Source: Candidatus Woesearchaeota archaeon
Lineage (GTDB): Archaea > Nanobdellota > Nanobdellia > SCGC-AAA011-G17 > JAGVZF01
Assembly: GCA_018302805.1 (NCBI GenBank)
Contig: JAGVZD010000001.1
Coordinates: forward strand, 1 to 51,290
Direction: 5' to 3'
DNA: 51,290 bases
Notes under the pieces: model-generated
Databases searched by the model: none
What the model was told of the DNA's origin: nothing
The model's input: the letters and a program-made list of their open reading frames with translations, nothing else
Translations under genes and position numbers: made by a program
In this document: positions 5,999 to 22,699 of the stretch, piece by piece
Layout of the letters: each line of letters starts with the position of its first letter
Numbering within the stretch: position 1 is the stretch's first letter

Positions 5999-6697
5999 TT
6001 ATGATTTTGATAAGTATTTATTGAGAATTTTTTGTAAGTCTGCAAGTACTGGAGTTAATTCTGAAATTTTATAGTCTTTGGCAACCTCAGAGATGTATTT
6101 TAAATTAGGAACAATTATATGCATTGAATTTGGTGAACTTCTTGGATTATAAGAGGAAATATCTGAATTTGACATAGCACGATCTATTGCAATAGCCACT
6201 AATGAACGATTACTTATATCCATCCCCATTGGTAAAATTAATGGATTTCCATTTAGTTCACGCGTAATATCACAAACTAATTGATCAATCACTATTATTT
6301 CAGGAAGCCTTTTTGAATATTCTGCTTTTGTAAGTTTTGCATCGTCTGAGCATTTAAGGTCAGTACTTAAAAGATAGCTGTTACTTATTGAATCTATCAA
6401 GTAATTCCAAATATCACCTGGAATTTCAGGTTCAAGAGCTACTTTTTGTCTTATTGTATTATCGTATTGATTTCTAACTGGCGCAATGTTTAGCAAATAT
6501 GGGCCAAATGATTCCAAGAAAATCCTTATATTATTATAAATTTTAGTTTGCTGTTCAAAAAAATTATTAACTAAGAAATTAGATAATATTTTATTGGCAT
6601 CAGAAATTAAAGTTGATTTATTAGTTTGATTTGGCACATTAACTTTGTCTTTTGATTCGTCTATTTCAATTCCGTTTAATTGATCATCAATTGGCAT
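5999..6697 (-). CDS. MPID-motif paralog 17 of 17, family C (start moved to the MPID Met)
   Basis: The ORF track starts at 6727 (MINTGEMKLKMPID...). The MPID Met is at 6695-6697, 1 nt after the upstream stop. This is the last gene of the array, and the tRNA-Thr lies just downstream. Confidence 0.75.
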   Translation of the reverse strand: MPIDDQLNGIEIDESKDKVNVPNQTNKSTLISDANKILSNFLVNNFFEQQTKIYNNIRIFLESFGPYLLNIAPVRNQYDNTIRQKVALEPEIPGDIWNYLIDSISNSYLLSTDLKCSDDAKLTKAEYSKRLPEIIVIDQLVCDITRELNGNPLILPMGMDISNRSLVAIAIDRAMSNSDISSYNPRSSPNSMHIIVPNLKYISEVAKDYKISELTPVLADLQKILNKYLSKS

Positions 6698-6698
6698 T

Positions 6699-7406
6699 TT
6701 AAGCTTCATCTCTCCAGTATTTATCAATTTCTTCCTTCAATTTATATTCAAGATCTGATTTTTCATCATCTGAGATTTTAATAGATGGTGTGTTAAAATG
6801 AACAAATGGTTTTTGTAAAGGTAATTCCTGAGTTGCAAATTTAGATGTTCTATCTTTGAAAATAACACATATATCATATCTACCATTGCATGTTGTATTA
6901 ACTTCTTCACCATCAATTGTGCATTGGTCTAATATATTCCTTTTGGAAAAATCCGGATCATATTTAAAATATGGACAAACAAGATTTAATCCCAATGGCG
7001 CTAACTTAGCGTAAAATTGTAATGCATCATCAGAAGTTGGATTTAATTCCAATTGTATTGCTTTCATTGAAATATATTCTATTCTATCTAATTGATTAGA
7101 AAGTATTAATGCATTTTTGTATATTTCTGGAAATTCTGGATTCGTTACAAAATTACAAATTGCCTTATCTAGTTCATTTAAAGAATTATTAAGAGGCCAA
7201 AAATTGGATAAACCTTTTAGATGAGCTTTTATTAATTGCACTTGCTTTTCTTTGTCTTTTGATATTAAAAAATTCTGGTAGTGTTCAACTTCCCTAGTTA
7301 AATTTTCAATCTGAAGTTTATATTCGTGTGCTTTTCTTTGAAGTTCTTCCAATTGCTTTAATTCATCTGCAATTCTCAATTTTTCTATTTGATCATCTAT
7401 TGGCAT
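6699..7406 (-). CDS. MPID-motif paralog 16 of 17, family E (coiled-coil-like N-terminal third)
   Basis: The ORF track starts at 7430 (MSKYGAHKMPID...). The MPID Met is at 7404-7406. Heptad-like segment: LRIADELKQLEELQRKAHEYKLQIENLTREVEHYQNF. Confidence 0.75.
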   Translation of the reverse strand: MPIDDQIEKLRIADELKQLEELQRKAHEYKLQIENLTREVEHYQNFLISKDKEKQVQLIKAHLKGLSNFWPLNNSLNELDKAICNFVTNPEFPEIYKNALILSNQLDRIEYISMKAIQLELNPTSDDALQFYAKLAPLGLNLVCPYFKYDPDFSKRNILDQCTIDGEEVNTTCNGRYDICVIFKDRTSKFATQELPLQKPFVHFNTPSIKISDDEKSDLEYKLKEEIDKYWRDEA

Positions 7407-7407
7407 T

Positions 7408-8175
7408 TTATGGGCACCATATTTTGACATAATTGTCTCTTGTTTTATTGAAATCTTCCATTGTTCGAACTATTTCTTTAACACTATATTGTTTAGCCAC
7501 TGTCAAATAATTGCCAGCAAATGGTGTCAACTTTTCAAAAATATACTTTAAATTAGCGGAACCTGCTATTAAGTCACTCCTCTTAGAGGTAATCTGGTCA
7601 ATCTGAACTGATTTAAGAAACTCATCTACTACTAATGTTGCTAGGGATCTATATTGAAGATTCATTGACATAACTATCAATTGAGGATGACAAGTCATTA
7701 ATTGCGATGCTCTTTCATTATTTCCTGAAATAACTAAATCATTTTTTAATAATTTAAATTCAGGAATTAAATCTCTTAATTGATTAAAAAATCTATCCTT
7801 CTTAAAATATGTCACCAAATCAGTAGATTCAACATAATCTCCAAGTATTATATTTCCTATTTCCTTAAGCTTATCATCAGCTAGATCAGCATTAAAACGT
7901 GAAATTATTAGCTTCCTGCTACTGAATGGAATTAATTCTGGCAAAAATGTTAGTAATTCTAATCCCAAAGATCGCAGAATATTTTGAGAATAATTACTTA
8001 TCTGGTGAAGTGGATGATCTTGCCCAGATAGTTTTCCATGGTAAAAATCAAGTAAATATCCACCCATTACCTTTCTTGCATCAGCGTCTAAGGAATCTGG
8101 TATGGTAATCTTACTACTTTGATCTGGTTTATTTGGCAAATCTTCAAGATTATCAAGTTGTTCATCAATTGGCAT
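7408..8175 (-). CDS. MPID-motif paralog 15 of 17, family C (start moved to the MPID Met)
   Basis: The ORF track starts at 8280, 35 codons upstream and inside the preceding gene. The MPID Met is at 8173-8175, 1 nt after the upstream stop. Contains IPEFKLLKNDL and CHPQLIVMS. Confidence 0.75.
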   Translation of the reverse strand: MPIDEQLDNLEDLPNKPDQSSKITIPDSLDADARKVMGGYLLDFYHGKLSGQDHPLHQISNYSQNILRSLGLELLTFLPELIPFSSRKLIISRFNADLADDKLKEIGNIILGDYVESTDLVTYFKKDRFFNQLRDLIPEFKLLKNDLVISGNNERASQLMTCHPQLIVMSMNLQYRSLATLVVDEFLKSVQIDQITSKRSDLIAGSANLKYIFEKLTPFAGNYLTVAKQYSVKEIVRTMEDFNKTRDNYVKIWCP

Positions 8176-8176
8176 T

Positions 8177-8917
8177 TTACACCTTGAGCTTCCCTGGTCT
8201 AACAGCCATCCATGAGACAGAAATACGTGGATTCCCAATCTGCAGGTGAATTTCTTGTCGTTTATAATAACTATCAGCACAGATTATCCTGGCTTTAGAT
8301 GGTGATCCGATAGTACATGGGTAATAGTAGCCCACTTTTCCAACAGTTACATCTGCTCTTGGAAAACCTTGGTGTGTAGAATTTCTAAGCCAATCTAATA
8401 AGTCAATTAATTTTGGTTTCCTTACCGCGATTAAAGTTTCCGGGTCAATTTCTTCTGTTTTTTTAATTAATCTATTTTCTAAAAATTGGTGGTAAGTAAT
8501 TAATTCTTCACGGTCTTTCCTGGAAAAAACAATGTCCACCCATTCACCTCTTGACAGTTCTTGTGGATCTATAATATTATTTAATAATCTTTGACGTATT
8601 TCTTGTGGCACTTTCGTACCGTCTCCGTAAAATACACTTCTTGATTCTAACAAGTTTAATAAGTCAACATACTGTCGCATATTAAGCATGAACATACCTT
8701 CGCGATGGAGTAATTTATGGGTTTTTGTAAAAGAGGTACGCCAATGCTTTTTTTTCAAGGCAATAAAAATATCTGGATAAGAATAAGTTCCGTATAATTT
8801 ACCTTCTAATATAATATAATTCTTGAGCTGGTCAGAATCAAGAGGTTCATCTAATTTAATATGTCTAGTGCTATCTTGTAAATCTTCTAATTTTTCCAGG
8901 TGATCGTCAATTGGCAT
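8177..8917 (-). CDS. MPID-motif paralog 14 of 17, family A
   Basis: Starts MPIDDHLEKLEDLQ. Contains YIILEGKLYGTYSYPDIFI, MLNMRQYVDLLNLLESRSVFYGDG, GEWVDIVF, QGFPRAD and C-terminal MAVRPGKLKV. Confidence 0.8.
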   Translation of the reverse strand: MPIDDHLEKLEDLQDSTRHIKLDEPLDSDQLKNYIILEGKLYGTYSYPDIFIALKKKHWRTSFTKTHKLLHREGMFMLNMRQYVDLLNLLESRSVFYGDGTKVPQEIRQRLLNNIIDPQELSRGEWVDIVFSRKDREELITYHQFLENRLIKKTEEIDPETLIAVRKPKLIDLLDWLRNSTHQGFPRADVTVGKVGYYYPCTIGSPSKARIICADSYYKRQEIHLQIGNPRISVSWMAVRPGKLKV

Positions 8918-8918
8918 T

Positions 8919-9659
8919 TTAACTTATACAACGTGTATATTTTTCAATGGCTGTTTCTAAGGCCATTAAATTGGATAGAATTGTTTTGCAATTATATGTA
9001 GATGCGGTTTCTAAAAAATCTTTAGTTGAAGGCATAAATTGTTCTAATATATTTAGTTTTTTTGCATGAGAGAGAATGCGCCAATTTGCGCAACCAGACA
9101 AATCAATAGTTCCCTTATTAATTGATCTTTCAATTGCTAGAGCTGTAAGAGGTCTGTCTTCTGGAATTAAACTCATTACAATTAATTGTGGGTGAAGTGT
9201 AGTCCTCTGAATAGCAGTCTCAATTTTACAATTTATTAGCTTATTTTTAACAACTTTAAATTCTGGTAATATTTCCTCAAGTTTTTTTGGATTACTTCCA
9301 TCAACGAAGCTATAGAGATCTGTTTTCAGTGCTTCATTTCCATACATTTTTCTGATAATACATTCTATATCTCTAGGATCTGTTATATTCAAAAGATTTA
9401 TCTTTAAATAAAAATCATATCGTGTTTTTGTAGGATAAATTGCAAACAAATCAGGTCCTAATGTAGTGATTGCTTTTCTTGTTTGAGTGTCTAATTCTAA
9501 GGATGTTTGTTGACCTGGCAATTCACCTTGAAAAAATTGTGTTAGATATTTTTCAAGAATAGATTTTGCTCCACTAACTAATTGTTCTTCATTAGACTTC
9601 TGACTGACAATATCTCTTTCATCGTCTGCAACTTGTTCTAATATTTTGTCTATTGGCAT
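8919..9659 (-). CDS. MPID-motif paralog 13 of 17, family C
   Basis: Starts MPIDKILEQVADDE. Shares LPEFKVVKNKL and LHPQLIVMS with 7408-8175. Its start overlaps the moxR stop by 1 nt. Confidence 0.8.
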   Translation of the reverse strand: MPIDKILEQVADDERDIVSQKSNEEQLVSGAKSILEKYLTQFFQGELPGQQTSLELDTQTRKAITTLGPDLFAIYPTKTRYDFYLKINLLNITDPRDIECIIRKMYGNEALKTDLYSFVDGSNPKKLEEILPEFKVVKNKLINCKIETAIQRTTLHPQLIVMSLIPEDRPLTALAIERSINKGTIDLSGCANWRILSHAKKLNILEQFMPSTKDFLETASTYNCKTILSNLMALETAIEKYTRCIS

Positions 9660-11131
9660 TATACATTATCTTCTTCTTGTTGCTTAGATTGTATTTTTGA
9701 TAGTAAGTATTTTTGCGCATGTGGTTTTAGTTCACTTTCCAACATCAATTTTCTCTGGAATTTTTGGAAATTGGCTTGAGTCATTTCCATGCTATCTATC
9801 TCATCAAATAAGGTTCTAAATTCTTTCTTTCCAGCTTCTTCAATTAATGGCTGGAAATGTCTCTTGACAACTAAATCTTTACTGATATCGTTAATCTTAG
9901 ATTTTTCTGGAGCAATATCCCCTCTAAGTACTTGGGGTAATTCTTTTAATGCATCTTTAACTGTATTATATGATTGAGTTGCCTTATCAACAAGTTGTTC
10001 TAAAAATTCTAATTTTGCACCATAAAATGGATCTTTACCTAGAATCATCTCATTTGGTTGAACTCTATGATACATTAAATAAGGTGCAATAGTAGATATT
10101 GTTTCTACTTGAACCTGTGGATTTTTAGGATCTGTGAATGCATTTACAAACCAAGCATATGCTTTTCCCCATCTTTGAAAGTCGAGGAATGCTCTACCAC
10201 TAATTCCAGTTTGCGTCATTTTACATATGGCTGCTGAAGTGTCAAAACCACAGCCTTTACATCTTTCTCCAACTGGGATTTCATTGTGTGATTTATCAAA
10301 GTAATCTGCTCTTTCACAAGTTGACACTGCCTGTGTTAAATAAATTGCATATACTAAGGCATCAGGACTCATTCTTACATCTTTTGAAATTAATTTTCTG
10401 GTTTTAGTAAGCTCGTCGAATGTCATTACTGGAGTTACTTTTAAATTCTGAAGTTTATCATCAAGTCTTTCTGCTAATAATGATAGGTCTGCTGCTGATG
10501 GTATTTGTGGTGCCGGTACACAGAAACTAAATCTGTCTATAAATGGCTTACTTAATGGATATGTACCAGAATCATTTGGATTTTCAGTGGCAAAAGCTAT
10601 GAAATCAGGTATTTCATATACTTGATCAATGAATTCGATTCTTCCTTTATTCATGATTTCAAATAGTGCATTTTGTGCTGGTGGTGGAAATCTATTAACT
10701 TCATCAATTATTTTTACAGGACATTTTACAAAATTTCTCCATAAAACTTCTTCTTCACCTGTAGTCATTAATTTTCCAAGCCTTAAAGTTGCTAATAATG
10801 TATTTACATTTTGGTCATCATTACCCCTGATCATAGCACTAAGGATCTCATCTTCAGGTATAGAAGTTAACATATGAGTTACCTTTTCTATTAAAGTTGT
10901 TTTACCTCCGCCATGACCACCTCTATAAATTACTCCACTTTTTGGAACTAAAGCATTAACTATTGCAGAGCTTGTAACAGGATCTAAATAAATTTTCTTT
11001 ATTTCTCCACCAGAATTTTTGTATGTAAATTCTATAGCCCCTCTACTGTTGTAATAAATACCTTGAGTAGGAATTTCTGTATAAGCTGTTCTTACCTTTT
11101 CCCTTAATGAATCATGAAGTTTTAAGTCCAT
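9659..11131 (-). CDS. MoxR-class AAA+ ATPase with a C-terminal extension
   Basis: Walker A GGHGGGKT (10898-10921), Walker B KIIDEVNRFPP, sensor-1 FATENPND and Arg-finger region PFIDRFSF, all in the order and spacing typical of MoxR/RavA-type AAA+ proteins. An additional roughly 230 aa C-terminal part contains CKGCGFDTSAAIC. Confidence 0.85.
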   Translation of the reverse strand: MDLKLHDSLREKVRTAYTEIPTQGIYYNSRGAIEFTYKNSGGEIKKIYLDPVTSSAIVNALVPKSGVIYRGGHGGGKTTLIEKVTHMLTSIPEDEILSAMIRGNDDQNVNTLLATLRLGKLMTTGEEEVLWRNFVKCPVKIIDEVNRFPPPAQNALFEIMNKGRIEFIDQVYEIPDFIAFATENPNDSGTYPLSKPFIDRFSFCVPAPQIPSAADLSLLAERLDDKLQNLKVTPVMTFDELTKTRKLISKDVRMSPDALVYAIYLTQAVSTCERADYFDKSHNEIPVGERCKGCGFDTSAAICKMTQTGISGRAFLDFQRWGKAYAWFVNAFTDPKNPQVQVETISTIAPYLMYHRVQPNEMILGKDPFYGAKLEFLEQLVDKATQSYNTVKDALKELPQVLRGDIAPEKSKINDISKDLVVKRHFQPLIEEAGKKEFRTLFDEIDSMEMTQANFQKFQRKLMLESELKPHAQKYLLSKIQSKQQEEDNV

Positions 11132-11132
11132 T

Positions 11133-11936
11133 TTATGCCTCCGTTAATATTAATTCTGGATGATATTTTGATAATCTGTCAAATAAATTGGATTTAACAA
11201 TATCTGTATCTGGTGTCCCATTATAGTTTGATATAAATTCGAATAATTCTACAAGATCACAATACATTTCTTTTATTTCTTTAACTCCAGTTTGTTCACA
11301 AAAATTTTTTAATTCTGTTTTTGATGGCATTTTAAAAAAATGCAAAACTACTTTTCTTAATGGTATTTCAAATTCTGATAGTGCCAAATATTTATCAGAT
11401 TCCCAGTTTGAAAGTTCAGCACATCTTCTAAATTTATCTCCTTCATTTATAAACAGACTTAAAAATTCATAATTTGGTATAGAGAAAAAATTAGGACCTA
11501 CATCTTTAACAAAATGTGATATTTTATCTTTCTGTAATAATAATTCTAATTCATTGTACTCACCAGAGGGAATATCGATATGGGTTGTATTAAGTAATAA
11601 TGCTGAAAAGTCTGTTTCCTTTAATAGATAACCTAAATCTACATCAAGATCACTTACTAAGTTTATCAATTCAGGCTTTGTTAAAGGTACAAAGCTTGGT
11701 AACAAATTTTTCTGAAATCTAAACCACGGGAGATATTTTTCAATTGGTGCATATGAGCAGCAATCGCCATTTCTATTACTTGTCCGTCTGTAATTTTCAT
11801 TATGCATATTAACTACAGATCTTACATAACCTCTAAGCAGTTGAATTATTTGATTATTTGGAGTTTCAATTAATTTAGGTTGTTCTGGTTTATTTTCAGG
11901 AACTTCAAGATTTTCGAGCTGTTGGTCTATTGGCAT
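11133..11936 (-). CDS. MPID-motif paralog 12 of 17, family D
   Basis: Starts MPIDQQLENLEVPENK. Contains FFSIPNYEFLSLFINEG and C-terminal YHPELILTEA, which match the paralog at 17516-18298. Confidence 0.8.
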   Translation of the reverse strand: MPIDQQLENLEVPENKPEQPKLIETPNNQIIQLLRGYVRSVVNMHNENYRRTSNRNGDCCSYAPIEKYLPWFRFQKNLLPSFVPLTKPELINLVSDLDVDLGYLLKETDFSALLLNTTHIDIPSGEYNELELLLQKDKISHFVKDVGPNFFSIPNYEFLSLFINEGDKFRRCAELSNWESDKYLALSEFEIPLRKVVLHFFKMPSKTELKNFCEQTGVKEIKEMYCDLVELFEFISNYNGTPDTDIVKSNLFDRLSKYHPELILTEA

Positions 11937-11966
11937 GTTTTATCAATATTTTAAGCTTTTTAGTGA

Positions 11967-11974
11967 TTTATAAA
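11967..11974 (-). promoter_or_regulatory. Internal BRE/TATA promoter in front of paralog 12 and moxR, with a conserved upstream element at 11996-12008
   Basis: On the coding strand: TGTTACTACTATT, then 21 nt, then (GAAAGG)TTTATAAA, then 30 nt to ATG 11936. It is a near copy of the element set at 21081-21122. Confidence 0.5.
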
Positions 11975-12010
11975 CCTTTCGTTTTATAATCTCTAAATAG
12001 TAGTAACATT

Positions 12011-12901
12011 TTAAAGTAGTTCTAGTGCTTTGACTTTTGTAGTAGCCTGACGAATTCCAATGAAATATGGTTTATTATGAATTGGAATAGTACAATTTAA
12101 TATTAAATAATTCGCTTCACCAGGGAAACCAGACGCCGAAATATCTGAAAAGGCTTCAAATGTAGTCCCACATGCATCCATTGGAGCTTTATAAACTAAA
12201 CCAAGATTCATTCCTTTATAAACATTATTATTAGTTGGCAAACCTTGAATACTTGGATACATTAACCAATGATTAAAATCAATTCCAGTTGTTAACCCCC
12301 TATTTTCTGATAATGTTTTTACATCTAACTCTTCCACTTTAAAATCTAATTGACTTTGTGTATTAAATTTATAATATAATACAAATAAAGTATCTTTTAC
12401 TTTAATGTAATTCTGATTTAACCATTCCCCTTTTGTTTTATCACAAGAAAGTAAATCATCAATAATCGAATTTTGTTCATTGGTTTGAATTAAAATTCCA
12501 TGTCCATTGTATACTTTCTCCTGAGTTATTAATTTTAGAAATTCAATAAAAATATTTGGAGGTAAGATGAAGCTATTTAAATCTCTCATCAGCAGATTTG
12601 CTTCATGAAGTGAAATATTATGTATTGGATCGGAGTTATAAAATGGCTGAAATGGCCTATCATAATTGTGAAACTCTTCATAATCTATTTTCAATTTTTT
12701 ACATATACTTTCAATTTTCTTATCATTAACTAATTTCCTTTTGGCAACTAGTAAATCTGGATGTTCTTTGGTTTCTGGCAATAAAACAAATTCATCTAAA
12801 TATATTTCTGGAATAATTTCTTTTTCAGATGGATATTTTATCTTATTTTTTATTTGTATTTTTCTATTTTCCAATTTCCTTAAATAATCATCTATTGGCA
12901 T
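12011..12901 (-). CDS. MPID-motif paralog 11 of 17, family A (subfamily A2)
   Basis: Starts MPIDDYLRKLENRK. Contains VLLPETKEHPDLLV, IFIEFLKLITQ, GEWLNQ and QGLPTNN. Its start overlaps the upstream stop by 1 nt (TAATG). Confidence 0.8.
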   Translation of the reverse strand: MPIDDYLRKLENRKIQIKNKIKYPSEKEIIPEIYLDEFVLLPETKEHPDLLVAKRKLVNDKKIESICKKLKIDYEEFHNYDRPFQPFYNSDPIHNISLHEANLLMRDLNSFILPPNIFIEFLKLITQEKVYNGHGILIQTNEQNSIIDDLLSCDKTKGEWLNQNYIKVKDTLFVLYYKFNTQSQLDFKVEELDVKTLSENRGLTTGIDFNHWLMYPSIQGLPTNNNVYKGMNLGLVYKAPMDACGTTFEAFSDISASGFPGEANYLILNCTIPIHNKPYFIGIRQATTKVKALELL

Positions 12902-15950: not shown

Positions 15951-16718
15951 CTTCAACTTAGGTTTTGATGTGTGGTCTTGTATATTTAGTAATTTACCAC
16001 CATTGCAATACCCAGAGATTAAAGTTTTACCATGAGCAAAATTCACTAAACGTTCAATATCATCACAAAACTGAGTACAATTAGGAGGATTTTCCTTTTT
16101 CCAATTCCAATATGGACATGCATAATATCCATTTATCTTATTTATTTGGGACAGAATAGAATGACCAAGTAGATTTACATCAACCAAATCAGAAGTGTTA
16201 TATAAATCTACTAAATTATTATTAATCCCATTACAATATTTTAAAATTTCATATGTTACGCCAGATTTTGGCTGAATTGTTAATTCTGTGGAATTAATTT
16301 TTTTAAAGGCTTCTTCTATTGGGTCTATTATTTGGGCGTATAACGATGGCGGTATTTGCTTAGGATTATGTATAAATGCAGATAATTCTCTGATGTTTCT
16401 AAATGATCTACTCCAAACTTGAAGATTTTCTGAGAGGTTTGACATAGATTCTGCAAAATTAGAAAGATATTCTCGGTATGGCCATATATCTTTTATTTTA
16501 TCTAGAAGATCTCTAGTTGATATTTCATCTGTAGTATAATGACTGAAATTTAACTTGCCCCAGGTTTGAGCGAAAATTGGATGTAAATTTGCTATATTAT
16601 TTGATGGAAGCATAAATGGCGCTTGGAATCCATATAATATTTTCTTTTCTATTCCATTATTTTCTTTTCCTTTAGAAGGTAAATCTTCAAGATTTTCGAG
16701 CTGTTGGTCTATAGGCAT
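15927..16718 (-). CDS. MPID-motif paralog 6 of 17, family B (start moved to the MPID Met)
   Basis: The ORF track starts at 16736 (MEKKIKMPID...). Aligning all paralogs puts the real start at ATG 16716-16718, 2 nt after the upstream stop. Ends KLKKSFWRRK. Confidence 0.75.
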   Translation of the reverse strand: MPIDQQLENLEDLPSKGKENNGIEKKILYGFQAPFMLPSNNIANLHPIFAQTWGKLNFSHYTTDEISTRDLLDKIKDIWPYREYLSNFAESMSNLSENLQVWSRSFRNIRELSAFIHNPKQIPPSLYAQIIDPIEEAFKKINSTELTIQPKSGVTYEILKYCNGINNNLVDLYNTSDLVDVNLLGHSILSQINKINGYYACPYWNWKKENPPNCTQFCDDIERLVNFAHGKTLISGYCNGGKLLNIQDHTSKPKLKKSFWRRK

Positions 16719-16744
16719 TTTTATTTTCTTCTCCAAAATGATTT
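16702..16744 (-). repeat. 43 nt gene-junction repeat, copy 2
   Basis: tgttggtctataggcatttttattttcttctccaaaatgattt. See 15908-15950. Confidence 0.8.
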
Positions 16745-17506
16745 TTTCTTATTTTGTGTAATTGGTGGATTTTTTGGAGATATGTCTATCAAGGATGATT
16801 CAAAATTATTCCAATGATATGTAGAATAATTAACCTTTGATTTATTTTGGATAAAAGTGGACAATGACCTAATACAATTTAAATATTGGCTAGCCGGTAA
16901 TTTTCTATTCTGATCATTATATTCAAGCACAGATATGTTTTCATTTAGAGTATGAATCACTCGGAATAACGCACCAGCTATCCAGTTTAATTCTATAAAT
17001 CTATTATTTGAACCAAGTTCTCTATATAAATCTTCAAATTTCCTGCAATCATTAAATATCCAAGATTGATAACTCTGATCAAGAGGTATATCCATACTAG
17101 CAAGGGAAATTTTTGTAATCGCAGTCTCAAGATCTTTTAGGAGGCAACCTCTAACACTTTCTGGAACTATTGAATTTTCATTTAACTTGCTTGATTGAAT
17201 CTCTACTGGAATGTCACTCAAATTTTTCTTCCAATTTGATATTTCAAATCCGGTTACATTTAATGCTTGACTAGTTGTCACATATAATGCATAGTAGGGT
17301 TGAAATTTGTCTAAAATTGGTTTTATTTCTGATACATTCATCTCATATGACTGACCATATTGTAAAATTGATTTTACTTTTTGAAATTTTGCAACCATCT
17401 CTTCAATTTTTTCTGCAGGTAATCTATATTCAAATCTTAAATCAATAGAGTTTGCTTTATTAGTTTTGTTTGATTCCAAGTTTTTAAGTTGATCATCTAT
17501 TGGCAT
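16721..17506 (-). CDS. MPID-motif paralog 5 of 17, family B
   Basis: Starts MPIDDQLKNLESNK and ends KKKSFWRRK. First of four tandem family B genes. Confidence 0.8.
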   Translation of the reverse strand: MPIDDQLKNLESNKTNKANSIDLRFEYRLPAEKIEEMVAKFQKVKSILQYGQSYEMNVSEIKPILDKFQPYYALYVTTSQALNVTGFEISNWKKNLSDIPVEIQSSKLNENSIVPESVRGCLLKDLETAITKISLASMDIPLDQSYQSWIFNDCRKFEDLYRELGSNNRFIELNWIAGALFRVIHTLNENISVLEYNDQNRKLPASQYLNCIRSLSTFIQNKSKVNYSTYHWNNFESSLIDISPKNPPITQNKKKSFWRRK

Positions 17507-17515
17507 TTTACATCT

Positions 17516-18298
17516 TTAATAATTAATTGTTAATTCAGGATGAAATGTTGTTAATTTTTCATACAGACCTTTCCTTAATTTTTGAGAGTCTCGCGTTGAC
17601 CTAATATAGTCTACTAAATCCAATGTCTGTTCTATCATATTACTTAAATTCTGAGAGGAATATGGTTTTTTCAAGTATTTTGTTATATTATCAAAGTTGA
17701 GAATATCTGTCATGTCCATATGTTTAACATCGTTGGTGAGAAATAAAATTGGTTTATCTCTTTCATCAAAACTTTGTGATACCGAAGATAATTCAAATCC
17801 ATCACTTATAAATAAACTCAAGAATGTCAGATCAGGTATAATAAATACGTGGTTTGTTAAATCATTAAATGCCTGGATTAAAGGATAGTTTAAAATCTTT
17901 GGAATTACAAATTTTTCATTCCCAGGGATTGGATAAACTACTCTAGAGCATAACTTCTCTATATTAGGTATTTCACTATGTTCAGAGAAATCTGAATCTG
18001 CGTCTAAAGCTATCTCAATCATATTTGATGGATCATAACAACCAAGTATATGTTTAAGACCCGGTCTGAATTTAAGGAAACAATATAAAGACTCTAACAT
18101 TTTAAACTCGTTATCACCATTTAATTTTATTTTTTGAACATGTTTTGGTAAAAGTTCAGAATCACCTAAATTTAATATTTCATGAGAATAGGACATTAGT
18201 GCATCAAGAACATAATCTTCTTGCGGTAGGTCTTGTGATTTGTTTGATTCGTTATCCTTATCTGTATGCATTTTCCTAATTTGGTCATCAATTGGCAT
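17516..18298 (-). CDS. MPID-motif paralog 4 of 17, family D
   Basis: Starts MPIDDQIRKMHTDK. Shares FIIPDLTFLSLFISDG and C-terminal FHPELTINY with the paralog at 11133-11936. Confidence 0.8.
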   Translation of the reverse strand: MPIDDQIRKMHTDKDNESNKSQDLPQEDYVLDALMSYSHEILNLGDSELLPKHVQKIKLNGDNEFKMLESLYCFLKFRPGLKHILGCYDPSNMIEIALDADSDFSEHSEIPNIEKLCSRVVYPIPGNEKFVIPKILNYPLIQAFNDLTNHVFIIPDLTFLSLFISDGFELSSVSQSFDERDKPILFLTNDVKHMDMTDILNFDNITKYLKKPYSSQNLSNMIEQTLDLVDYIRSTRDSQKLRKGLYEKLTTFHPELTINY

Positions 18299-18299
18299 T

Positions 18300-19040
18300 T
18301 TACACCTTTAACTTTGCTGCTCTAAGTCCCATTGAACTTACTGCCAAAGGATACACTCCTAAAAATAATCCACCATCCTTTAATATACTCGAATCTTCTG
18401 GAAAAATAATTATCCTTAAACATTTTGGCTGCGAAGCGAAACATGAGAATGAATATCCTAAACTTCCGGGAGAGATATCATACTCAGGTAATCCTTGATC
18501 ATTTGATTTGATTATCCATTCTTGATAACTAATCCTTTTGTTGTGACAATCCTTCAGGGTTTTAAACTCTAATTCCACTGTTTTTTCTACTAATTTTTTA
18601 TTTTCAAATTGATGAAAAATAATATAATCTTCATTCTTTTTTCTTGATAAAACAGCATCAAGCCATTCTCCCCTAGGAACATGTTTAGGTTCTTTTATAT
18701 CCACCAATAGCTTTTCTATCGTCGAATATTCAACTTTGCTACCATCTCCATAAAATACAGATCGTGATTCCAATATCTTTAGAAAGTCAACATATTGCCT
18801 CATTGTCAGTAAAAATGATTGTTCTTTTTGAAGCATGGTGTGGATTTGATAAAATGGATTTCCATAATGAGTTCTGCTTAATGGAACTAAAATGTCTGGA
18901 TAAGAATAGGTTCCATGTAATTTACCTTCTAATATAATGTAATTTTTTAATTTATCGGATGGGATAGATGTATCTAATTTATTTTGATTTGAGTTTTGTT
19001 GCATTTGTTCAAGATTACCCAGATAATCATCAATCGGCAT
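18300..19040 (-). CDS. MPID-motif paralog 3 of 17, family A
   Basis: Starts MPIDDYLGNLEQMQ. Contains YIILEGKLHGTYSYPDILV, LLTMRQYVDFLKILESRSVFYGDG, GEWLDAV, QGLPEYD and C-terminal MGLRAAKLKV. Its first 11 nt overlap the 3' end of the vWA gene. Confidence 0.8.
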   Translation of the reverse strand: MPIDDYLGNLEQMQQNSNQNKLDTSIPSDKLKNYIILEGKLHGTYSYPDILVPLSRTHYGNPFYQIHTMLQKEQSFLLTMRQYVDFLKILESRSVFYGDGSKVEYSTIEKLLVDIKEPKHVPRGEWLDAVLSRKKNEDYIIFHQFENKKLVEKTVELEFKTLKDCHNKRISYQEWIIKSNDQGLPEYDISPGSLGYSFSCFASQPKCLRIIIFPEDSSILKDGGLFLGVYPLAVSSMGLRAAKLKV

Positions 19041-21042
19041 CGTTTTCTTTCACATCCTCATATTCTTTTCGAACTTCACCAATGATTAATCCTATTAAAT
19101 CATCAATTCTTTTTATTTTGTAAATATTTGCTCCTCTTCCAGCTACTGAATTTGATAAGTTAGATGAATCTGAATGAATGAGAAATACTGCTAATTTATC
19201 ATGTTCAGTTATTGCTTTGTGAAAAACTTCTGTTGCCTGGTTATCATTTGATATCATGCAATCACTAATTAAACAAGTTAAGAGAGGATTTTTTGTTCCT
19301 TTGATTAGTTTATATGTCTCATCAATAGGAACTACTGTACCACCACCATAATAAGACATAATTGCTCTTTCAATGCTATTCATATCTGATGTGTAATATT
19401 GCTCTGTAACATTACTTTCGCCAGAAAAATTTAGAATGGCAACTTTGCCACCATTTTTTATTGAATATAATGAAGCTGCTTCTGCTGCTAAAATTGCTTT
19501 ATCATATTCTCCTCTTTGCTCTGGATTATCTGACATTGGACTCCAGCTCATACTTCCTGAAGAATCAATTGCAATGAAAATGTCTGGAATTGCCTTTAAC
19601 TTCCCTTTGTAATTAGAGGAGGTCATTTTTCTTTTGAAAGTTGTAATTCCAGGAATTGGCTTTCCAGATGACATAACAGAAGGAATTATTTCTAAACCAC
19701 CTTTACCCATAATTGGATCTCCAATATTCCAAGGCGTTTGGTAAGCTGGAACTTTTTCAGCTCTTTGATTTTCTAGCTCATTAATTGACATTAATAATTC
19801 TCGAGCTCTTGCTCTGTACATTAATCTAAGTAAGTCATCAGGTTCTAATTTTGTTAAAGCACCCATTGTACCCGCAAATTTTCCAGGAGATTTTTTATTT
19901 CTTTGATAAATCTCATCTATAATTCTTTCATCTATAGAATCAGCTATTTGATCAGCTTCACTTTGGGATTCATTTCTATCATGGCTTTGTTTAGATTCTT
20001 TTGCTCCAGATCCTTCTCCTTTCCTATACTTCTTGTATTTCCCTTTACCAGAGCCAATTTTACTTTCTGTTGGATTTCCCATTTGAGTTTGAACATCATC
20101 AGGTATTGGTAAATTATTACCACTTTGTTTTTGATCTCCATATCTACTTTTTCCACCTTGTTGCTGCATGTCTTGCACATCTTGTTTAATGATTGGTTCT
20201 AAAATAGCTGCAAATTTTCTAACTTTATCTTCCCATGTATCTCTATTTCTATAATCATTTCCCAGAACTTTAACAAGATCTTCAGCTGCCTTTTCAGTTA
20301 CCGGATTTCTTTTTTGAACAACATCATTTAAACCAAGATCTTCCTGCCACAATTTTTCATATGAAGATACTAAGGTTTGCCATATCATAGAAGGTTTTTG
20401 AGGCGTATTTCTTGCTTCCCTTACAAATTCTTTGGTTCTCCAAACTGTTAAATCTGAAAAATCATCTCGTCCATATGATTTTCTAGCTAATAAAGTATCT
20501 CCGATTAAGTCTCCCATTATATTCATAGCTAAAAAAGAATAATCTGCTGCTAAGTGCTTATTTTTTGCAATGTTGGGATCAGTAAAACCTTTTATTGCTG
20601 AATCTATAAGTATTGCTTCTGTCACAGCATCAGATGGGACTTGAGTGAAATGTGCTCCACATTCATGTTGAAATAGACTCCTAGCTAGCAGCTTATGTTC
20701 TTTACCTTTTGATTTTTTATCATATTCAGAAAGATATCTTTCTAAATTAGATTCTCCTTCTATTTTTTTGGGCATATCTTGAACATTGAAGCGAATTTGC
20801 CAAGTCTTAGTGTCAATGGCAAAACCTCTAGGAATATGCTTTCTGGGATCGTCTTCTTTACCTTTTTCTGCATTGTTGATGATTTTTGGATCAGGTAAAT
20901 TTGAAACATAAAGGTCCCAACAAGCATGTCTAAAAGCCTGAATAATATCTTCTTCTGTAAAACCTTCGATTCCAGTTGCTAAATTCTCTAGTTTTGGTTT
21001 TTTTTGCTTCGAGCTAGTTCCGTATTTTTCAAAAAGAGGCAT
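19030..21042 (-). CDS. vWA-domain protein with intact MIDAS motif (partner of the MoxR ATPase), unknown N-terminal domain and disordered charged linker
   Basis: DIFIAIDSSGSMSW (DxSxS MIDAS, codons at 19552-19566) is followed by a vWA-like alternating beta/alpha pattern (VAILNFSG, GGGT, LISD). Residues about 290-390 are a Gly/Lys/Gln/Ser-rich low-complexity stretch. The N-terminal roughly 290 aa carry no recognisable motif. Confidence 0.85.
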   Translation of the reverse strand: MPLFEKYGTSSKQKKPKLENLATGIEGFTEEDIIQAFRHACWDLYVSNLPDPKIINNAEKGKEDDPRKHIPRGFAIDTKTWQIRFNVQDMPKKIEGESNLERYLSEYDKKSKGKEHKLLARSLFQHECGAHFTQVPSDAVTEAILIDSAIKGFTDPNIAKNKHLAADYSFLAMNIMGDLIGDTLLARKSYGRDDFSDLTVWRTKEFVREARNTPQKPSMIWQTLVSSYEKLWQEDLGLNDVVQKRNPVTEKAAEDLVKVLGNDYRNRDTWEDKVRKFAAILEPIIKQDVQDMQQQGGKSRYGDQKQSGNNLPIPDDVQTQMGNPTESKIGSGKGKYKKYRKGEGSGAKESKQSHDRNESQSEADQIADSIDERIIDEIYQRNKKSPGKFAGTMGALTKLEPDDLLRLMYRARARELLMSINELENQRAEKVPAYQTPWNIGDPIMGKGGLEIIPSVMSSGKPIPGITTFKRKMTSSNYKGKLKAIPDIFIAIDSSGSMSWSPMSDNPEQRGEYDKAILAAEAASLYSIKNGGKVAILNFSGESNVTEQYYTSDMNSIERAIMSYYGGGTVVPIDETYKLIKGTKNPLLTCLISDCMISNDNQATEVFHKAITEHDKLAVFLIHSDSSNLSNSVAGRGANIYKIKRIDDLIGLIIGEVRKEYEDVKENDAD

Positions 21043-21080
21043 TTTGGATCAAATCTTATTATTTTAGGCCATTTTGATAG

Positions 21081-21088
21081 TTTATAAA
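21081..21088 (-). promoter_or_regulatory. Internal BRE/TATA promoter in front of the vWA gene, with a conserved upstream element at 21110-21122
   Basis: On the coding strand: TGTTACCACTATT, then 21 nt, then (GAAAGA)TTTATAAA, then 38 nt to ATG 21042. The same three-part layout with identical spacing occurs at 11967-12008. Confidence 0.5.
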
Positions 21089-21240
21089 TCTTTCTAATTA
21101 TTATTTCTTAATAGTGGTAACAGTATATTAATTTTAAATATCTTATAAATGGGTTTAAAATAACTTTAGCAGGCGATTCTAAATATTCATTTCTTTGTAT
21201 TTTATTATTAAATGAAATTAAGTAAATAAAATTATTAATT

Positions 21241-21984
21241 CTAGCATTTCTGAGCCTTAAAAGTCATGGGAAAGGTCAAAGGATCACCTACTATATGTGG
21301 ACGAAAAACTTCTTTTTCAGTGTTTAAATTGAATCGTCTTTCTATTATATCAGATCCTCCATATGTTGCAACATTACCATCTCTTTGTGGTGAATGATAT
21401 TTAATTAGGAAATTTCCATAATTGGATTTTGAATAAGGTAATCCAAAACTGTTAGGTGTAGCAAGGAAATTGTCTAATGTTAAACAACAATCTGAAATTA
21501 AGAAATCAAATGGATTTAGAAAATGTCTATCATGTGCTACTGGGCCTTCACTAGTATTAAGATGATTATAATAAATAAATTTGGCATCACCCTGTATTCT
21601 AAATTCAGTATCTAACCAAATTAATTTATCTGTATTAATAATATTATTAAATTTATATATTAAAAATTTTGGATTTAATTTTCTTTTATATTGATCACAG
21701 GCATTACCAGATTTTAGAAGTTTTAAATAATCAATGAATTGTCTAGGCGTTAACATAAAAGAATCTAAGTCATCTAATAATTCGTGTGCATAATCCCAAT
21801 TTTGTGCAGGTAAATAAGTTGTAGAAATTAATAGATCTGGATAGTTATAATTTTTATATTGCTTCCCTTCTAGGAAAATTTGTGTAAGAGATGTAATTGG
21901 CGGATATTTTTCTCTTTTTGGGGTAATTTTTTGCTTGATGTACCGATGTCCTTTCAAGTTTCCCAAATAATCATCTATTGGCAT
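21241..21984 (-). CDS. MPID-motif paralog 2 of 17, family A (divergent)
   Basis: Starts MPIDDYLGNLKGHR. Contains FLEGKQYKNYNYPDLLIS, MLTPRQFIDYLKLLKSG and FGLPYSK. There is 1 nt between the stop of paralog 1 and this ATG. Confidence 0.8.
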   Translation of the reverse strand: MPIDDYLGNLKGHRYIKQKITPKREKYPPITSLTQIFLEGKQYKNYNYPDLLISTTYLPAQNWDYAHELLDDLDSFMLTPRQFIDYLKLLKSGNACDQYKRKLNPKFLIYKFNNIINTDKLIWLDTEFRIQGDAKFIYYNHLNTSEGPVAHDRHFLNPFDFLISDCCLTLDNFLATPNSFGLPYSKSNYGNFLIKYHSPQRDGNVATYGGSDIIERRFNLNTEKEVFRPHIVGDPLTFPMTFKAQKC

Positions 21985-21985
21985 T

Positions 21986-22699
21986 TTATTTTATTAATTT
22001 TGCTGGACGTACTCCAAGCCAAGTAGCTAAGAACGATGGACTACCATGCAATATTAAGTCAATCCCCCCAGAATTTGCATTAAACCATGTGGCCCCACCT
22101 TCTCTTAGATACCAAAAGTAGACATTTCCCCTTGCAATATCTTTTCTCGGAAGACCTTGGGTATTGGCATCACTTAACCATTCATCTAGGTCTATTTGTT
22201 TATCTTCCATCAAAGTATCTTGATCTAATTTATCTGGCATAATTATTGGCTGATCATCTGAGTTAAATTTATAATAGTCTATTGTTGTAGTCTCTCCTCG
22301 AATGGTAAATTTATTATTCAACCATTCTGCTCTCCATGGATCTCTAACTGCATAAATATTATTAAGAATTTCAACAACCTTTTCTTCAAATATCCTATCT
22401 CCATTTGCGTCATAAGCAGTTCCTGATTTTAATATATTAAGAAAATCAATATATTGTCTTAAATTTAGCATAACCGAATCTTCCTGATGCAAAATTTTAA
22501 GGGTCTCCAACCAAGTCAAGTTATAATGGGATCTTTCCATTGAAACTAATAGATTAGGATATGAAAAAGTTTTATGCGATCTACCTTCAAGAATAACATA
22601 ATTTTCAGGGTTTTCAATAAATTCATAAGGAACAGGATTTACAAATTTATGAAAAGATCTTGCTCCTTGGATTTTTTCTAAATATTTATCAATTGGCAT
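21986..22699 (-). CDS. MPID-motif paralog 1 of 17, family A
   Basis: Starts MPIDKYLEKIQGAR. Family A core: YVILEGRSHKTFSYPNLLV, MLNLRQYIDFLNILKSG, AEWL, QGLPRKD, and C-terminal LGVRPAKLIK. Confidence 0.8.
   Translation of the reverse strand: MPIDKYLEKIQGARSFHKFVNPVPYEFIENPENYVILEGRSHKTFSYPNLLVSMERSHYNLTWLETLKILHQEDSVMLNLRQYIDFLNILKSGTAYDANGDRIFEEKVVEILNNIYAVRDPWRAEWLNNKFTIRGETTTIDYYKFNSDDQPIIMPDKLDQDTLMEDKQIDLDEWLSDANTQGLPRKDIARGNVYFWYLREGGATWFNANSGGIDLILHGSPSFLATWLGVRPAKLIK

Follow-up and report, generated by a model that had tools for sequence, protein, structure and literature searches.

Seventeen proteins encoded in a single block of an archaeal chromosome begin with the same 11-residue peptide and share their gene cluster with a MoxR-class AAA+ ATPase and a vWA/MIDAS protein. 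The block lies in a 51,290-nucleotide stretch of a Candidatus Woesearchaeota archaeon (contig JAGVZD010000001.1), which was analysed as a whole and is called the window below. The same layout, with lineage-specific versions of the peptide, is found in related archaea and points to an undescribed protein-addressing system. We give a probability of about 0.5 to a tag-directed client system, in which the MoxR ATPase and a co-chaperone that joins a zincin-like HExxH domain to the vWA/MIDAS domain would use the peptide as a handle for the assembly or maturation of subunits.

Gene content of the tagged block

A sequence-only reading of the window had described 19 genes, all on the minus strand between positions 5999 and 22699, and this arrangement was borne out by the ORF listing and by re-extraction of the genes from their MPID starts. 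The spacing it gave, recomputed from the coordinates, also stands: consecutive genes are separated by −11 to +9 nt except at two gaps of 74 and 198 nt. Each gap carries an archaeal BRE/TATA-like sequence, judged from its letters to be a likely internal promoter. The block has the same base composition as its flanks. A tRNA-Thr gene lies 42 nt past the last gene, and RHS/YD-repeat genes occur 5 kb from the block. The features are as follows, in the direction of transcription.

21986..22699, minus: tagged protein, family A, 237 aa, MPIDKYLEKIQG (ORF listing, all-against-all BLASTP)
21241..21984, minus: tagged protein, family A, 247 aa, MPIDDYLGNLKG (ORF listing, BLASTP)
21043..21240, minus: 198-nt gap; likely promoter AAAGATTTATAAA, ~35 nt ahead of the start of the vWA gene
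19030..21042, minus: 670-aa vWA protein; N-terminal helical domain with HECGAH, Gly/acidic disordered linker, C-terminal vWA domain
18300..19040, minus: tagged protein, family A, 246 aa; 11-nt overlap with the vWA gene (ORF listing, BLASTP)
17516..18298, minus: tagged protein, family D, 260 aa (BLASTP)
16721..17506, minus: tagged protein, family B, 261 aa (BLASTP)
15927..16718, minus: tagged protein, family B, 263 aa (BLASTP)
15193..15924, minus: tagged protein, family B, 243 aa (BLASTP)
14450..15190, minus: tagged protein, family B, 246 aa (BLASTP)
13632..14447, minus: tagged protein, family A, 271 aa (BLASTP)
12901..13629, minus: tagged protein, family A, 242 aa (BLASTP)
12011..12901, minus: tagged protein, family A, 296 aa (BLASTP)
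11937..12010, minus: 74-nt gap; likely promoter GAAAGGTTTATAAA, ~33 nt ahead of the start of the next gene
11133..11936, minus: tagged protein, family D, 267 aa (BLASTP)
9659..11131, minus: MoxR-class AAA+ ATPase, 490 aa (Pfam AAA_3, AAA_5)
8919..9659, minus: tagged protein, family C, 246 aa (BLASTP)
8177..8917, minus: tagged protein, family A, 246 aa (BLASTP)
7408..8175, minus: tagged protein, family C, 255 aa; modelled, pLDDT 89.2 (predicted structure)
6699..7406, minus: tagged protein, family E, 235 aa (BLASTP)
5999..6697, minus: tagged protein, family C, 232 aa; final gene of the block (BLASTP)

The tagged proteins are soluble, span 232–296 aa and include all four example peptides that the sequence-only reading had singled out; none of the 17 contains a transmembrane-like hydrophobic stretch. 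Its division of their bodies into five families (seven A, four B, three C, two D and one E) was reproduced by all-against-all BLASTP. Profile-profile comparison after trimming of the tag revealed no significant similarity among families, the best pair being C and D (E 0.012 over 33 columns), and no tagged protein matches a named family in Pfam, NCBIfam, PADLOC, PHROGs or PDB. The family C model (7408..8175) is predicted to have a tag helix at residues 3–10, a disordered segment at residues 11–26 and a compact alpha/beta body, and despite its high pLDDT it has no match in PDB or BFVD. Family E has a heptad-rich N-terminal half that by eye looks like a coiled coil.

The remaining two genes are also what they had been taken for. 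The ATPase passes the Pfam cut-offs for both AAA domains and displays, by eye, Walker A (GGHGGGKT), Walker B (IIDEVN), sensor-1 (ENPND) and DRF arginine motifs. The MIDAS site of the vWA protein is intact, with DSSGS and the distal Thr and Asp, and all five positions are invariant in 16 homologues; Foldseek matches its predicted C-terminal domain to solved vWA domains, NorD among them. The N-terminal domain of this protein carries an HExxH motif that is kept in all 76 homologues covering the site, with the window's own copy reading HExxxH (HECGAH) through a one-residue insertion.

A peptide conserved as protein across related loci

The 17 window proteins share the pattern M-P-I-D-[DKQE]-[QYHI]-[LI]-x-x-[LIVM]-[ERAHKQ], or MPIDxxLxxLE, in which P2, I3 and D4 are invariant and L7, L10 and E11 conserved. 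A six-frame translation of the whole window contains 1944 Met residues and exactly 17 MPID tetrapeptides, every one at the start of these genes. Identity between families is 58% over residues 2–11 and only 6–10% beyond. Synonymous codons differ among the copies at the tag Leu, Ile, Asp and Pro positions, with six different Leu codons in use. Because the invariant and conserved residues are specified by several synonymous codons, and since orthologous loci keep the pattern with different sequence, we conclude that the tag is conserved at the protein level. Its general pattern is acidic and amphipathic (hydrophobic-acid-acid-x-hydrophobic-x-x-hydrophobic), and the peptide is predicted to be helical.

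A vWA orthologue is present in nine independent DPANN loci (the window, L005, L006, L007, L009, L011, L014, L102 and L103), and in all nine it is adjoined by tagged genes, whose products range from ~140 to 330 aa and are mostly ~250 aa long. Seven of the nine also hold the orthologous MoxR gene; in L009, which combines vWA with eight tagged genes, no orthologue of the 490-aa MoxR lies within 10 kb. The core gene order is vWA-(B/D)n-MoxR-(E)-C-C. Family C, found in every orthologous locus, is the core client family; family D sits between the vWA and MoxR genes, and a family E orthologue (39% identity) directly follows MoxR in L006, the single other DPANN locus in which it was noted. Relatives carry 1, 3, 5, 6, 7, 8, at least 13 or 17 tagged genes. 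The orthologous loci lie among housekeeping genes, at different sites, and they have no membrane, shell or secretion component in common.

The tag changes from genome to genome, in dialects: MPIDDALGNIE in L005, MTIEDSLxKIE in L006, MAFEDLLRDIR in L007, MAIDDAIDEMxVP in L009, MGITDEMKKAR in L011, MGT[FLI]DDALEGLP in L014, MTNNWEEILKQKK in L102 and MPIDDALEKI in L103; MGTLDDALEGLP and NWEEILKQKK are among the genome-specific forms. Mean tag identity is 0.65 between different families of the same locus and 0.33 within the same family from loci of different dialects. The tag sequence thus tracks the genome and not the body family, as expected if all tags in one cell meet one partner. Among 106 full-length family C representatives, 45 carry a class-1 tag and at least 19 a class-2 tag; the second residue is small (P, T, A, G or S) in 40 of 42 class-1 representatives.

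A second, deeply divergent clade combines family C clients with another tag and a divergent dynein/MoxR-like AAA protein (L098/L099, L100 and L101, with tags MAIL[IL]DG[DE]MM, MVKLIQGES and MTDKKIVDGKPP). Family D bodies are also present in L098, and L098 and L101 encode a vWA protein with HELFH...DSSGS. The sequence-only reading had noted neither this clade, nor the dialects, nor the fusion of an HExxH domain to vWA.

The association of tagged arrays with MoxR and vWA genes holds at all nine DPANN loci with a vWA orthologue and fails in two organisms (L001–L003; L004), where MPID arrays of 3–5 genes, mainly family A, have neither gene within 10 kb. Routine occurrence of such orphan arrays had been named as evidence against the proposal, and these two cases go part of the way towards it. 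Conversely, a MoxR and HExxH-vWA pair is encoded in ~70 Asgard genomes with the tagged array undetected nearby, so the pair is not dependent on an array. Single family A genes without the MPID tag are found in housekeeping surroundings as well.

A proposed tag-directed machine and its alternatives

The established view of MoxR-vWA pairs assigns peptide capture to the vWA domain and remodelling of the bound protein to the ATPase (PMC7159879). Each client here would consist of three parts, namely the acidic amphipathic tag, a disordered charged linker of ~15–25 residues and a soluble body of ~200 aa from one of several unrelated families. The tag, perhaps with its linker, would be the handle by which the co-encoded machine captures every client in the cell. 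Most probably an acidic tag residue would coordinate the MIDAS metal while the hydrophobic face packs beside it, and ATP hydrolysis by the MoxR ring would then remodel, load or release the client. Where a lineage has kept HExxH intact, clipping of the tag or linker may occur as well; the insertion in HECGAH makes this doubtful in the window's organism. The vWA proteins have a conserved N-terminal motif of their own with a pattern similar to the tag, and the L102 MoxR has a tag-related W-E-E motif near its N terminus, so that the receptor could be MoxR or another protein and not the MIDAS site.

Families C and D accompany the machine through deep divergence and family E turns up in a second DPANN locus, which would make the assembly or maturation of a multi-subunit structure, built of paralogous tagged subunits, the likeliest purpose. 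Lineage-specific families (A, B, membrane proteins and repeat proteins) would be further clients. The idea of the tag as a common handle is favoured by its protein-level conservation, its genome-wise sequence and the MoxR/vWA link, while the orphan arrays, the lack of the MoxR orthologue near the L009 array and the array-less Asgard pairs speak against it and the untagged single family A genes qualify it.

Two other explanations are possible, although we consider each unlikely. The tagged proteins may be diversifying effectors, sensors or decoys used in conflict or host interaction, which MoxR/vWA holds until a stimulus leads to their release or activation, after the model put forward for the MoxR-vWA ternary conflict systems of bacteria. 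Tagged-gene number and family content shift quickly between relatives, and copy numbers of 1 to 17 fit such a repertoire as well as a structural complex. Lineage-specific families have been added (A and B in the window, membrane proteins in L004, and repeat proteins of 455 and 469 aa in L098), the organisms are DPANN-type archaea, RHS/YD-repeat genes lie nearby in the window, and a shared N-terminal adaptor on varied effectors has precedent (PMC7159879). However, the retention of families C and D over very deep divergence suggests fixed subunits, not swapped effectors. Moreover, none of the tagged proteins has a detectable toxin, nuclease, peptidase or other effector domain, a third component of the VMAP, iSTAND, FtsH or beta-propeller kind is absent, and PADLOC returns nothing.

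It is likewise conceivable, if doubtful, that the tag addresses another partner, such as an unrecognised export route, a compartment, a hub protein or other tags in a bundle, with MoxR and vWA as neighbours or fellow clients. Such a partner would account for the orphan arrays and for the tag-like motifs of the vWA proteins and the L102 MoxR; a strictly N-terminal tag with a small second residue matches a free-N-terminus signal, and two L004 tagged proteins have hydrophobic stretches that by eye resemble membrane segments. Yet tagged genes stand beside the vWA orthologue in every such locus, co-directional and translationally coupled, the loci have no conserved component that would serve as membrane, shell or secretion partner, and the window's 17 clients lack any stretch typical of a membrane segment.

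A morphogenesis module of a virus or provirus, with structural proteins and a MoxR-vWA assembly chaperone, is very improbable. MoxR-vWA pairs do aid virion or tail assembly in Acidianus two-tailed virus and jumbo phages (PMC7159879, PMC7824862), and a tRNA gene adjoins the block, but integrase, capsid, portal and terminase genes were not found. The PHROG search returned no family except a weak AAA match. Both the tag pattern and the vWA family are absent from IMG/VR, a tblastn search of 50,697 phage records with the vWA protein as query yielded nothing, and the family C model is unmatched in BFVD. The uniform base composition and the varied housekeeping settings of orthologous loci also argue against it. 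Least credible is a nucleotide-level signal for translational coupling or ribosome loading, or gene conversion, with no function for the peptide: tight coupling, with the upstream stop 1–2 nt before or overlapping most starts (TAAA-ATG), would suit it, but it is contradicted by the free synonymous variation, by other genomes in which altered residues and codons still preserve the hydrophobic/acidic pattern, and by the tags on the genes that open the inferred transcription units, each without an upstream partner.

Relation to known systems

Terminal targeting by short peptides is familiar from bacterial microcompartments and encapsulins, whose unrelated cargo proteins carry a short terminal amphipathic helix of system-specific sequence on a flexible linker. 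The loci described here share this plan but have no shell protein; the partners they conserve are the ATPase and the vWA protein. In eukaryotic ribosome assembly, Midasin/Rea1, an AAA+ protein of the MoxR/dynein clade, engages through its MIDAS an acidic residue that Rsa4 and Ytm1 carry in a common N-terminal module, and pulls these substrates off a complex. Here too AAA+ and MIDAS domains would act on different substrates, the likeness being one of AAA and vWA folds; in contrast, Midasin is a single giant chain that binds ubiquitin-like domains and not peptides.

RavA-ViaA, CbbQ-CbbO, NorQ-NorD, CoxD-CoxE and ATV p618-p892 likewise pair a MoxR-class AAA+ protein with a MIDAS-bearing vWA partner. 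Classical pairs have one dedicated target each (Rubisco, nitric oxide reductase, fumarate reductase), whereas many unrelated clients with a common peptide, an extra HExxH domain and client folds without a match distinguish the present system. The ternary conflict systems (Kaur et al. 2020, PMC7159879) share the MoxR-vWA core and the logic of an N-terminal adaptor. They occur in multicellular bacteria, whereas the present distribution is archaeal (DPANN, Asgard), their adaptor is a folded domain where ours is an 11-residue peptide, and their VMAP, iSTAND, FtsH, beta-propeller and recognisable effector domains have no counterpart here.

The group 2.2 jumbo phages (Iyer et al. 2021, PMC7824862) have the same MoxR ATPase gene adjoining a fusion of an N-terminal HExxH metallopeptidase-like domain to vWA, and the pair was proposed to act there in virion assembly and in the processing of structural proteins by proteolysis. 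The present genes are archaeal and chromosomal and have no detectable sequence similarity to phage records. They also differ in being accompanied by 1–17 clients with a common N-terminal tag, a feature undescribed for the phage pair.

The tagged array

The block of 19 consecutive minus-strand genes that the sequence-only reading had claimed at window positions 5999-22699 was recovered by an ORF listing and by re-extraction from the MPID start codons. Its 17 MPID proteins have the length (232-296 amino acids) and the start reported for them, M-P-I-D-[DKQE]-[QYHI]-[LI]-x-x-[LIVM] followed by E and other residues, and gene spacing recomputed from the coordinates again came to -11 to +9 nt, two larger gaps excepted. 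All-against-all BLASTP reproduced the five body families with their memberships (A, seven proteins; B, four; C, three; D, two; E, one). These families had been described as dissimilar, and hidden homology among the five was rejected: a profile-profile comparison by hhalign, with 14 N-terminal residues trimmed from each protein and the families enlarged by sequences from other loci, gave no significant similarity.

Within the shared N-terminal peptide (MPIDxxLxxLE, here called the tag), M1, P2, I3 and D4 are invariant among the 17 tagged proteins of the window, its clients, while L7 is present in 15 of 17, L10 in 13 and E11 in 12. Identity between families is 58% at residues 2-11 versus 6-10% downstream, and the MPID tetrapeptide occurs just 17 times when the 51-kb window is translated in six frames, each time at an array gene start. 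The MPID array is genuine and lies far beyond chance.

Searches of Pfam, NCBIfam, PADLOC, PHROGs and PDB sequences were all empty for the MPID proteins, in agreement with the earlier statement that no named family was recognised in them. A hydrophobic stretch of the membrane-segment type is found in none of the 17 clients, and family E has the look of a coiled coil by eye. The model of the family C protein at 7408-8175 (71-sequence alignment, pLDDT 89.2, pTM 0.84) predicts a helix in the tag at residues 3-10, disorder at residues 11-26 and then a compact alpha/beta domain. The family C model has no structural neighbour in the PDB, where the best match reached only E 1.1 with TM below 0.2, nor one among predicted viral proteins, and it did not match capsid-like folds.

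The window is chromosomal DNA of an archaeon with low GC content (about 30%), and its genes include ABCE1, RNase P Rpr2, PTH2, FtsJ, a 5S rRNA and one tRNA. Named relatives of the window proteins come from Woesearchaeota, Pacearchaeota and Nanoarchaeota, so that a DPANN origin is well supported. In each of the two larger gaps of the array an A-rich stretch is followed by TTTATAAA, 33-35 nt 5′ of the next start codon, and these elements resemble archaeal BRE/TATA sequences. Three transcription units (22699-21241, 21042-12011 and 11936-5999) may reasonably be inferred, no more than that. Several features accompany the array in the window.

5882-5956, plus strand: tRNA-Thr (CGT), 42 nt past the last array gene
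26697-27449, plus strand: gene for a 250-aa protein with a C-terminal Por_Secre_tail/CHU_C domain
27456-35775, plus strand: three genes, for two RHS/YD-repeat proteins (724 and 1671 aa) and a TPR protein
39030-39965, minus strand: LAGLIDADG endonuclease gene
40071-43793, minus strand: adjoining gene for a 1240-aa S8 subtilase with FG-GAP repeats

A mobile island at the tRNA was rejected, as no integrase was found and composition is unchanged in the window. The RHS/YD-repeat genes, at a distance of 5 kb from the array, give this DPANN genome a polymorphic-toxin-like module, and the 1671-aa protein gives a weak SpvB-like hit at its N-terminus. In bacteria the Por_Secre_tail/CHU_C domain serves as the sorting signal for type IX secretion, and its presence in an archaeon is unexpected.

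The MoxR ATPase and the HExxH-vWA protein

The remaining two genes of the block encode the proteins that we call the machine. The gene at 9659-11131, which had been named a MoxR-class AAA+ ATPase, exceeds the Pfam cut-offs for PF07726 AAA_3 (41.0 bits; cut-off 27) and PF07728 AAA_5 (39.7 bits; cut-off 22), and its motifs appear intact by eye (Walker A GGHGGGKT, Walker B IIDEVN, sensor-1 ENPND, arginine finger FIDRF). Its only solved relative by sequence is 2r44 (E 7.5e-10), deposited as ‘Uncharacterized protein’, which we take to be a MoxR-type ATPase.

In the protein encoded at 19030-21042, the MIDAS site claimed from sequence (DxSxS with distal Thr and Asp) holds up, with D493, S495, S497, T569 and D594 invariant among 16 homologues. 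The Pfam VWA_2 score is 18.4 bits, under the cut-off of 27. An AF2 model is confident over residues 434-660 (pLDDT about 85-94) and in Foldseek finds TFIIH p44, Rpn10, an integrin I domain, ArnB and NorD at E values of 1e-4 to 1e-3; the predicted fold of the C-terminal domain is thus the Rossmann-like alpha/beta fold of vWA domains. NorD is the partner of the MoxR protein NorQ.

The sequence-only reading had overlooked the N-terminal half of this protein, which in the model consists of a small sheet and then a confident helical domain with an HExxH site. The motif is present in all 76 homologues that cover the site, from DPANN and Asgard archaea, and also in divergent proteins of two further loci (L098 and L101). 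Past the motif, a Pro, an Asn and an Asp are invariant, the Asn and Asp lying 45-50 residues downstream. The window copy (20650-20670, residues about 125-132) reads HECGAH, a one-residue insertion in HExxH, which makes catalytic competence doubtful in this organism. The genome with this altered motif also has the largest array seen, with 17 clients. No sequence match to the HExxH domain was found in Pfam or the PDB, domain-only profiles included, and Foldseek yielded no structural identity for it: the matches listed for the full-length model fit the vWA domain only, as judged by length and identity. By its motif and topology we call the domain putatively zincin-like.

In the DPANN clade the vWA proteins share a conserved N-terminus of their own (window 21000-21042; A2 alignment columns 18-30). 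It reads M-[GS]-L-x-D-K-[LI]..G and leads into a disordered stretch of about 20 residues, a layout like that of the client tag. At another DPANN locus, L102 (7024-7080 and 10001-10040), a motif of W plus charged residues lies near the N-terminus of a client (MTNNWEEILKQKK), of the vWA protein (MDWKKFFRKIEEK) and of MoxR (..RTWEEMKMEQR).

Conservation of the association and dialects of the tag

Only 22 close homologues of the vWA protein exist in a large protein collection, and the contexts of these, together with a scan of one genome per species, make up the set of loci compared with the window. Nine DPANN loci are independent: the window, L005 (the same as L008), L006 (the same as L010), L007, L009, L011, L014, L102 and L103. 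In all nine, genes with a shared N-terminus, encoding proteins of about 140-330 aa (mostly about 250 aa), adjoin the vWA gene. An orthologous MoxR is present in seven, with 52-71% identity where measured. The L011 locus ends at a contig edge, and L009 has eight MAIDDAIDEM-tagged genes and no orthologous 490-aa MoxR within 10 kb; a different AAA gene lies nearby.

L009 7461-8513, minus strand: 351-aa AAA gene, 1.4 kb upstream, on the other strand

The record that holds L009 is labelled Methanosarcinales and has a GC content of 30% and DPANN-like gene content. At L103 (GCA_053533275.1), the vWA gene is preceded, 2 kb upstream, by two neighbouring genes for proteins with Pup-ligase (PafA/Dop-like) domains (6004-7382, minus strand).

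Gene order recurs as vWA, at least one B or D, MoxR, E at some loci, and two or three C. Family C is found in nine of nine loci and family D or B in most. Family A, the largest of the window, did not turn up when the other loci, L102 and L103 excepted, were searched with the window families. Each locus has its own version, or dialect, of the tag.

Tag dialects at DPANN loci compared with the window
L005: MPIDDALGNIE
L006: MTIEDSLxKIE
L007: MAFEDLLRDIR
L009: MAIDDAIDEMxVP
L011 (Aenigmatarchaeota): MGITDEMKKAR
L014: MGT[FLI]DDALEGLP
L102: MTNNWEEILKQKK
L103: MPIDDALEKI

The pattern hydrophobic-acid-acid-x-hydrophobic-x-x-hydrophobic is common to most dialects, and the L102 tag deviates from it; in all dialects except that of L102, position 4, position 5 or both are acidic, beside an aliphatic residue. 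Mean tag identity is 0.65 between different body families of one locus and 0.33 within one body family across loci with different dialects, which indicates concerted evolution of the tag within a genome. Such concerted change, as read from these sequences, is the signature expected if every tag fits one common partner. The sequence-only reading had allowed that the shared 5′ end might be nothing but a nucleotide-level coupling signal. Codon usage and dialects speak against this: conserved tag residues are written with synonymous codons (CCA/CCG/CCT, ATA/ATT, GAT/GAC and six Leu codons), which excludes a purely nucleotide-level signal. Together, conserved gene order and tag dialects bear out the proposed connection to MoxR and vWA, and on this comparative evidence a functional link of the tagged genes to both is well supported.

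An exhaustive profile search with family C retrieved 117 representatives among 1.84 billion, nearly all of 210-300 aa, versus only five proteins by a word-indexed search. Among 106 full-length representatives, 45 carry a tag of the hydrophobic-acid-acid type and at least 19 a hydrophobic-hydrophobic-x-G-[DE] motif, and a further subset by eye has an N-terminal W-[ED]-x-hydrophobic-hydrophobic motif; these N-terminal motifs mostly precede a charged stretch. The second type of tag marks a second clade. L098 (GCA_964632045.1, GC 45%) has at least 12 co-directional genes starting MAIL[IL]DG[DEK]M, with bodies of families C and D and of new types, together with a divergent dynein/MoxR-like AAA protein (GDTGVGKT) and a protein of 758 aa in which both HELFH and VDSSGS occur. 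L101 (GC 38%) has the same parts, with the tags MVKLIQGES and MAKLIKGAD. The design of AAA protein, HExxH-vWA protein and N-tagged clients thus predates any one tag. The L098 array is also flanked, at 18693-20152 on the minus strand, by genes for a 373-aa AAA ATPase, whose N-terminus by eye resembles an MIT domain (Vps4-like), and for a 106-aa protein of MIT-like appearance.

The association has bounds in both directions. The sequence-only reading had held that MPID arrays routinely lacking MoxR or vWA neighbours would count against it. Two organisms (L001-L003 and L004) do have arrays with neither gene within 10 kb, and tagged genes accompany the vWA orthologue at nine of nine loci. The arrays of these two organisms consist of three to five MPID-tagged genes with housekeeping flanks, and encode family A and new bodies, two of them with hydrophobic stretches resembling membrane segments. 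Solitary family A genes are found too, in housekeeping contexts, and their proteins start differently (MAPI[IM][ED][VI]..., MSESKRING...). Family A homologues from Pacearchaeota-like genomes (P0024, P0029, P0030, P0032-P0034 and P0039) share a conserved start, MAP[IT][IMY][ED][VI]..., which may be a further tag dialect; in the one context examined for these, L096 10001-10630, a lone gene lies beside DNA polymerase D. A metagenome scan with a DNA pattern of the MPID tag found only nine stretches, mostly from organisms already in the set, and yields no unbiased figure for co-occurrence.

Conversely, about 70 Asgard genomes encode full-length vWA homologues (24-30% identity, HExxH and MIDAS intact) beside a MoxR of 570-630 aa. 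Among these genomes are those of Thor-, Prometheo-, Hod-, Hermod-, Baldr-, Odin- and Sigynarchaeota and that of Promethearchaeum syntrophicum MK-D1, which is in culture (pair at about 3.314-3.318 Mb of NZ_CP042905.2). Within 10 kb of the Asgard pairs, neither arrays with a shared N-terminus nor genes of family C or D were found. At four loci of Thorarchaeota (L026 about 1009, L028 about 1221, L052 about 745 and L062 about 2934, minus strand), a gene about 9 kb away from the MoxR-vWA pair encodes a conserved protein of about 150 aa, which has no Pfam match and whose start, MGAGVEDMLEALGLPED, resembles the L014 tag MGTLDDALEGLPDG. One full-length HExxH-vWA homologue comes from a contig assigned to a Desulfobacteraceae bacterium (L083, CAJBLH010000315.1), through either horizontal transfer or a binning error.

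A possible addressing code and its known relatives

We infer both the physical mechanism and the biological purpose of the tagged system. In MoxR-vWA pairs an acidic residue of the target is bound at the vWA MIDAS site and the ATPase remodels the target (PMC7159879). In jumbo phages a MoxR gene adjoins a metallopeptidase-vWA fusion, for which a role in virion assembly and processing has been proposed (PMC7824862). In our best reading, the strictly N-terminal tag, with a flexible linker after it, would recruit each client to the co-encoded MoxR/vWA machine, which would remodel, assemble or mature the client and might clip it where HExxH is intact. The tag-like motifs on the N-termini of vWA proteins, and of MoxR at L102, make it possible that the receptor is MoxR instead, or that tags contact each other.

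A bolder reading is a previously unknown protein-addressing code of DPANN archaea, in which a genome-specific N-terminal peptide and flexible linker would be read by a MoxR/HExxH-vWA machine, its core pair shared with Asgard archaea, that assembles, matures or deploys a repertoire of new folds. We consider this tentative, with a probability of roughly 0.3. The main rival of the best reading takes the tagged proteins for a conflict or host-interaction repertoire, as fast turnover of copy number and the presence of accessory families would suggest; the occurrence of families C and D with the machine in both clades favours fixed subunits of one assembly.

Other identities were rejected. A MoxR-vWA ternary conflict system lacks its third component (VMAP, iSTAND, FtsH or beta-propeller) among the block genes, and PADLOC was empty. 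For microcompartment or encapsulin cargo, a Pfam shell family is absent from the window and from the precomputed annotations of other loci. Neither viral hallmark genes nor occurrence on viral contigs was found for a virus or provirus morphogenesis module. The family A C-terminus (QGLPR...YYW.P...GVRAAK) may be akin to variable domains of the C-type-lectin or FGE-like kind. A diversity-generating retroelement needs a reverse transcriptase and a template repeat; the window ORFs include no reverse transcriptase, and on this ground the clients were rejected as its targets.

If the addressing code is real, it would add a new class to the known targeting signals, beside signal peptides and cargo-loading peptides, and may serve host interaction in episymbionts. 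Several protein families are defined here, of which one or more lack any known structural relative, and some very small DPANN genomes gain a first context for a large part of their unannotated genes.

As a MoxR-vWA chaperone, of the variant with a fused metallopeptidase-like domain, the core pair is of a familiar type. As far as literature searches show, there is no earlier description of a multi-client N-terminal tag with co-evolving dialects or of the new client families. To our knowledge, MoxR-vWA pairs are widespread and their clients are known in a handful of cases, with one target per known pair. Here the clients seem to label themselves, with a short N-terminal tag on up to 17 unrelated proteins per genome that shifts jointly across all clients between lineages. 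The system thereby offers a direct, testable route to substrate recognition by MoxR-vWA pairs through peptide, MIDAS site and metal, and the Asgard core pair, including that of cultured MK-D1, opens the way to experiments and possibly to a comparison with the principle of eukaryotic midasin.
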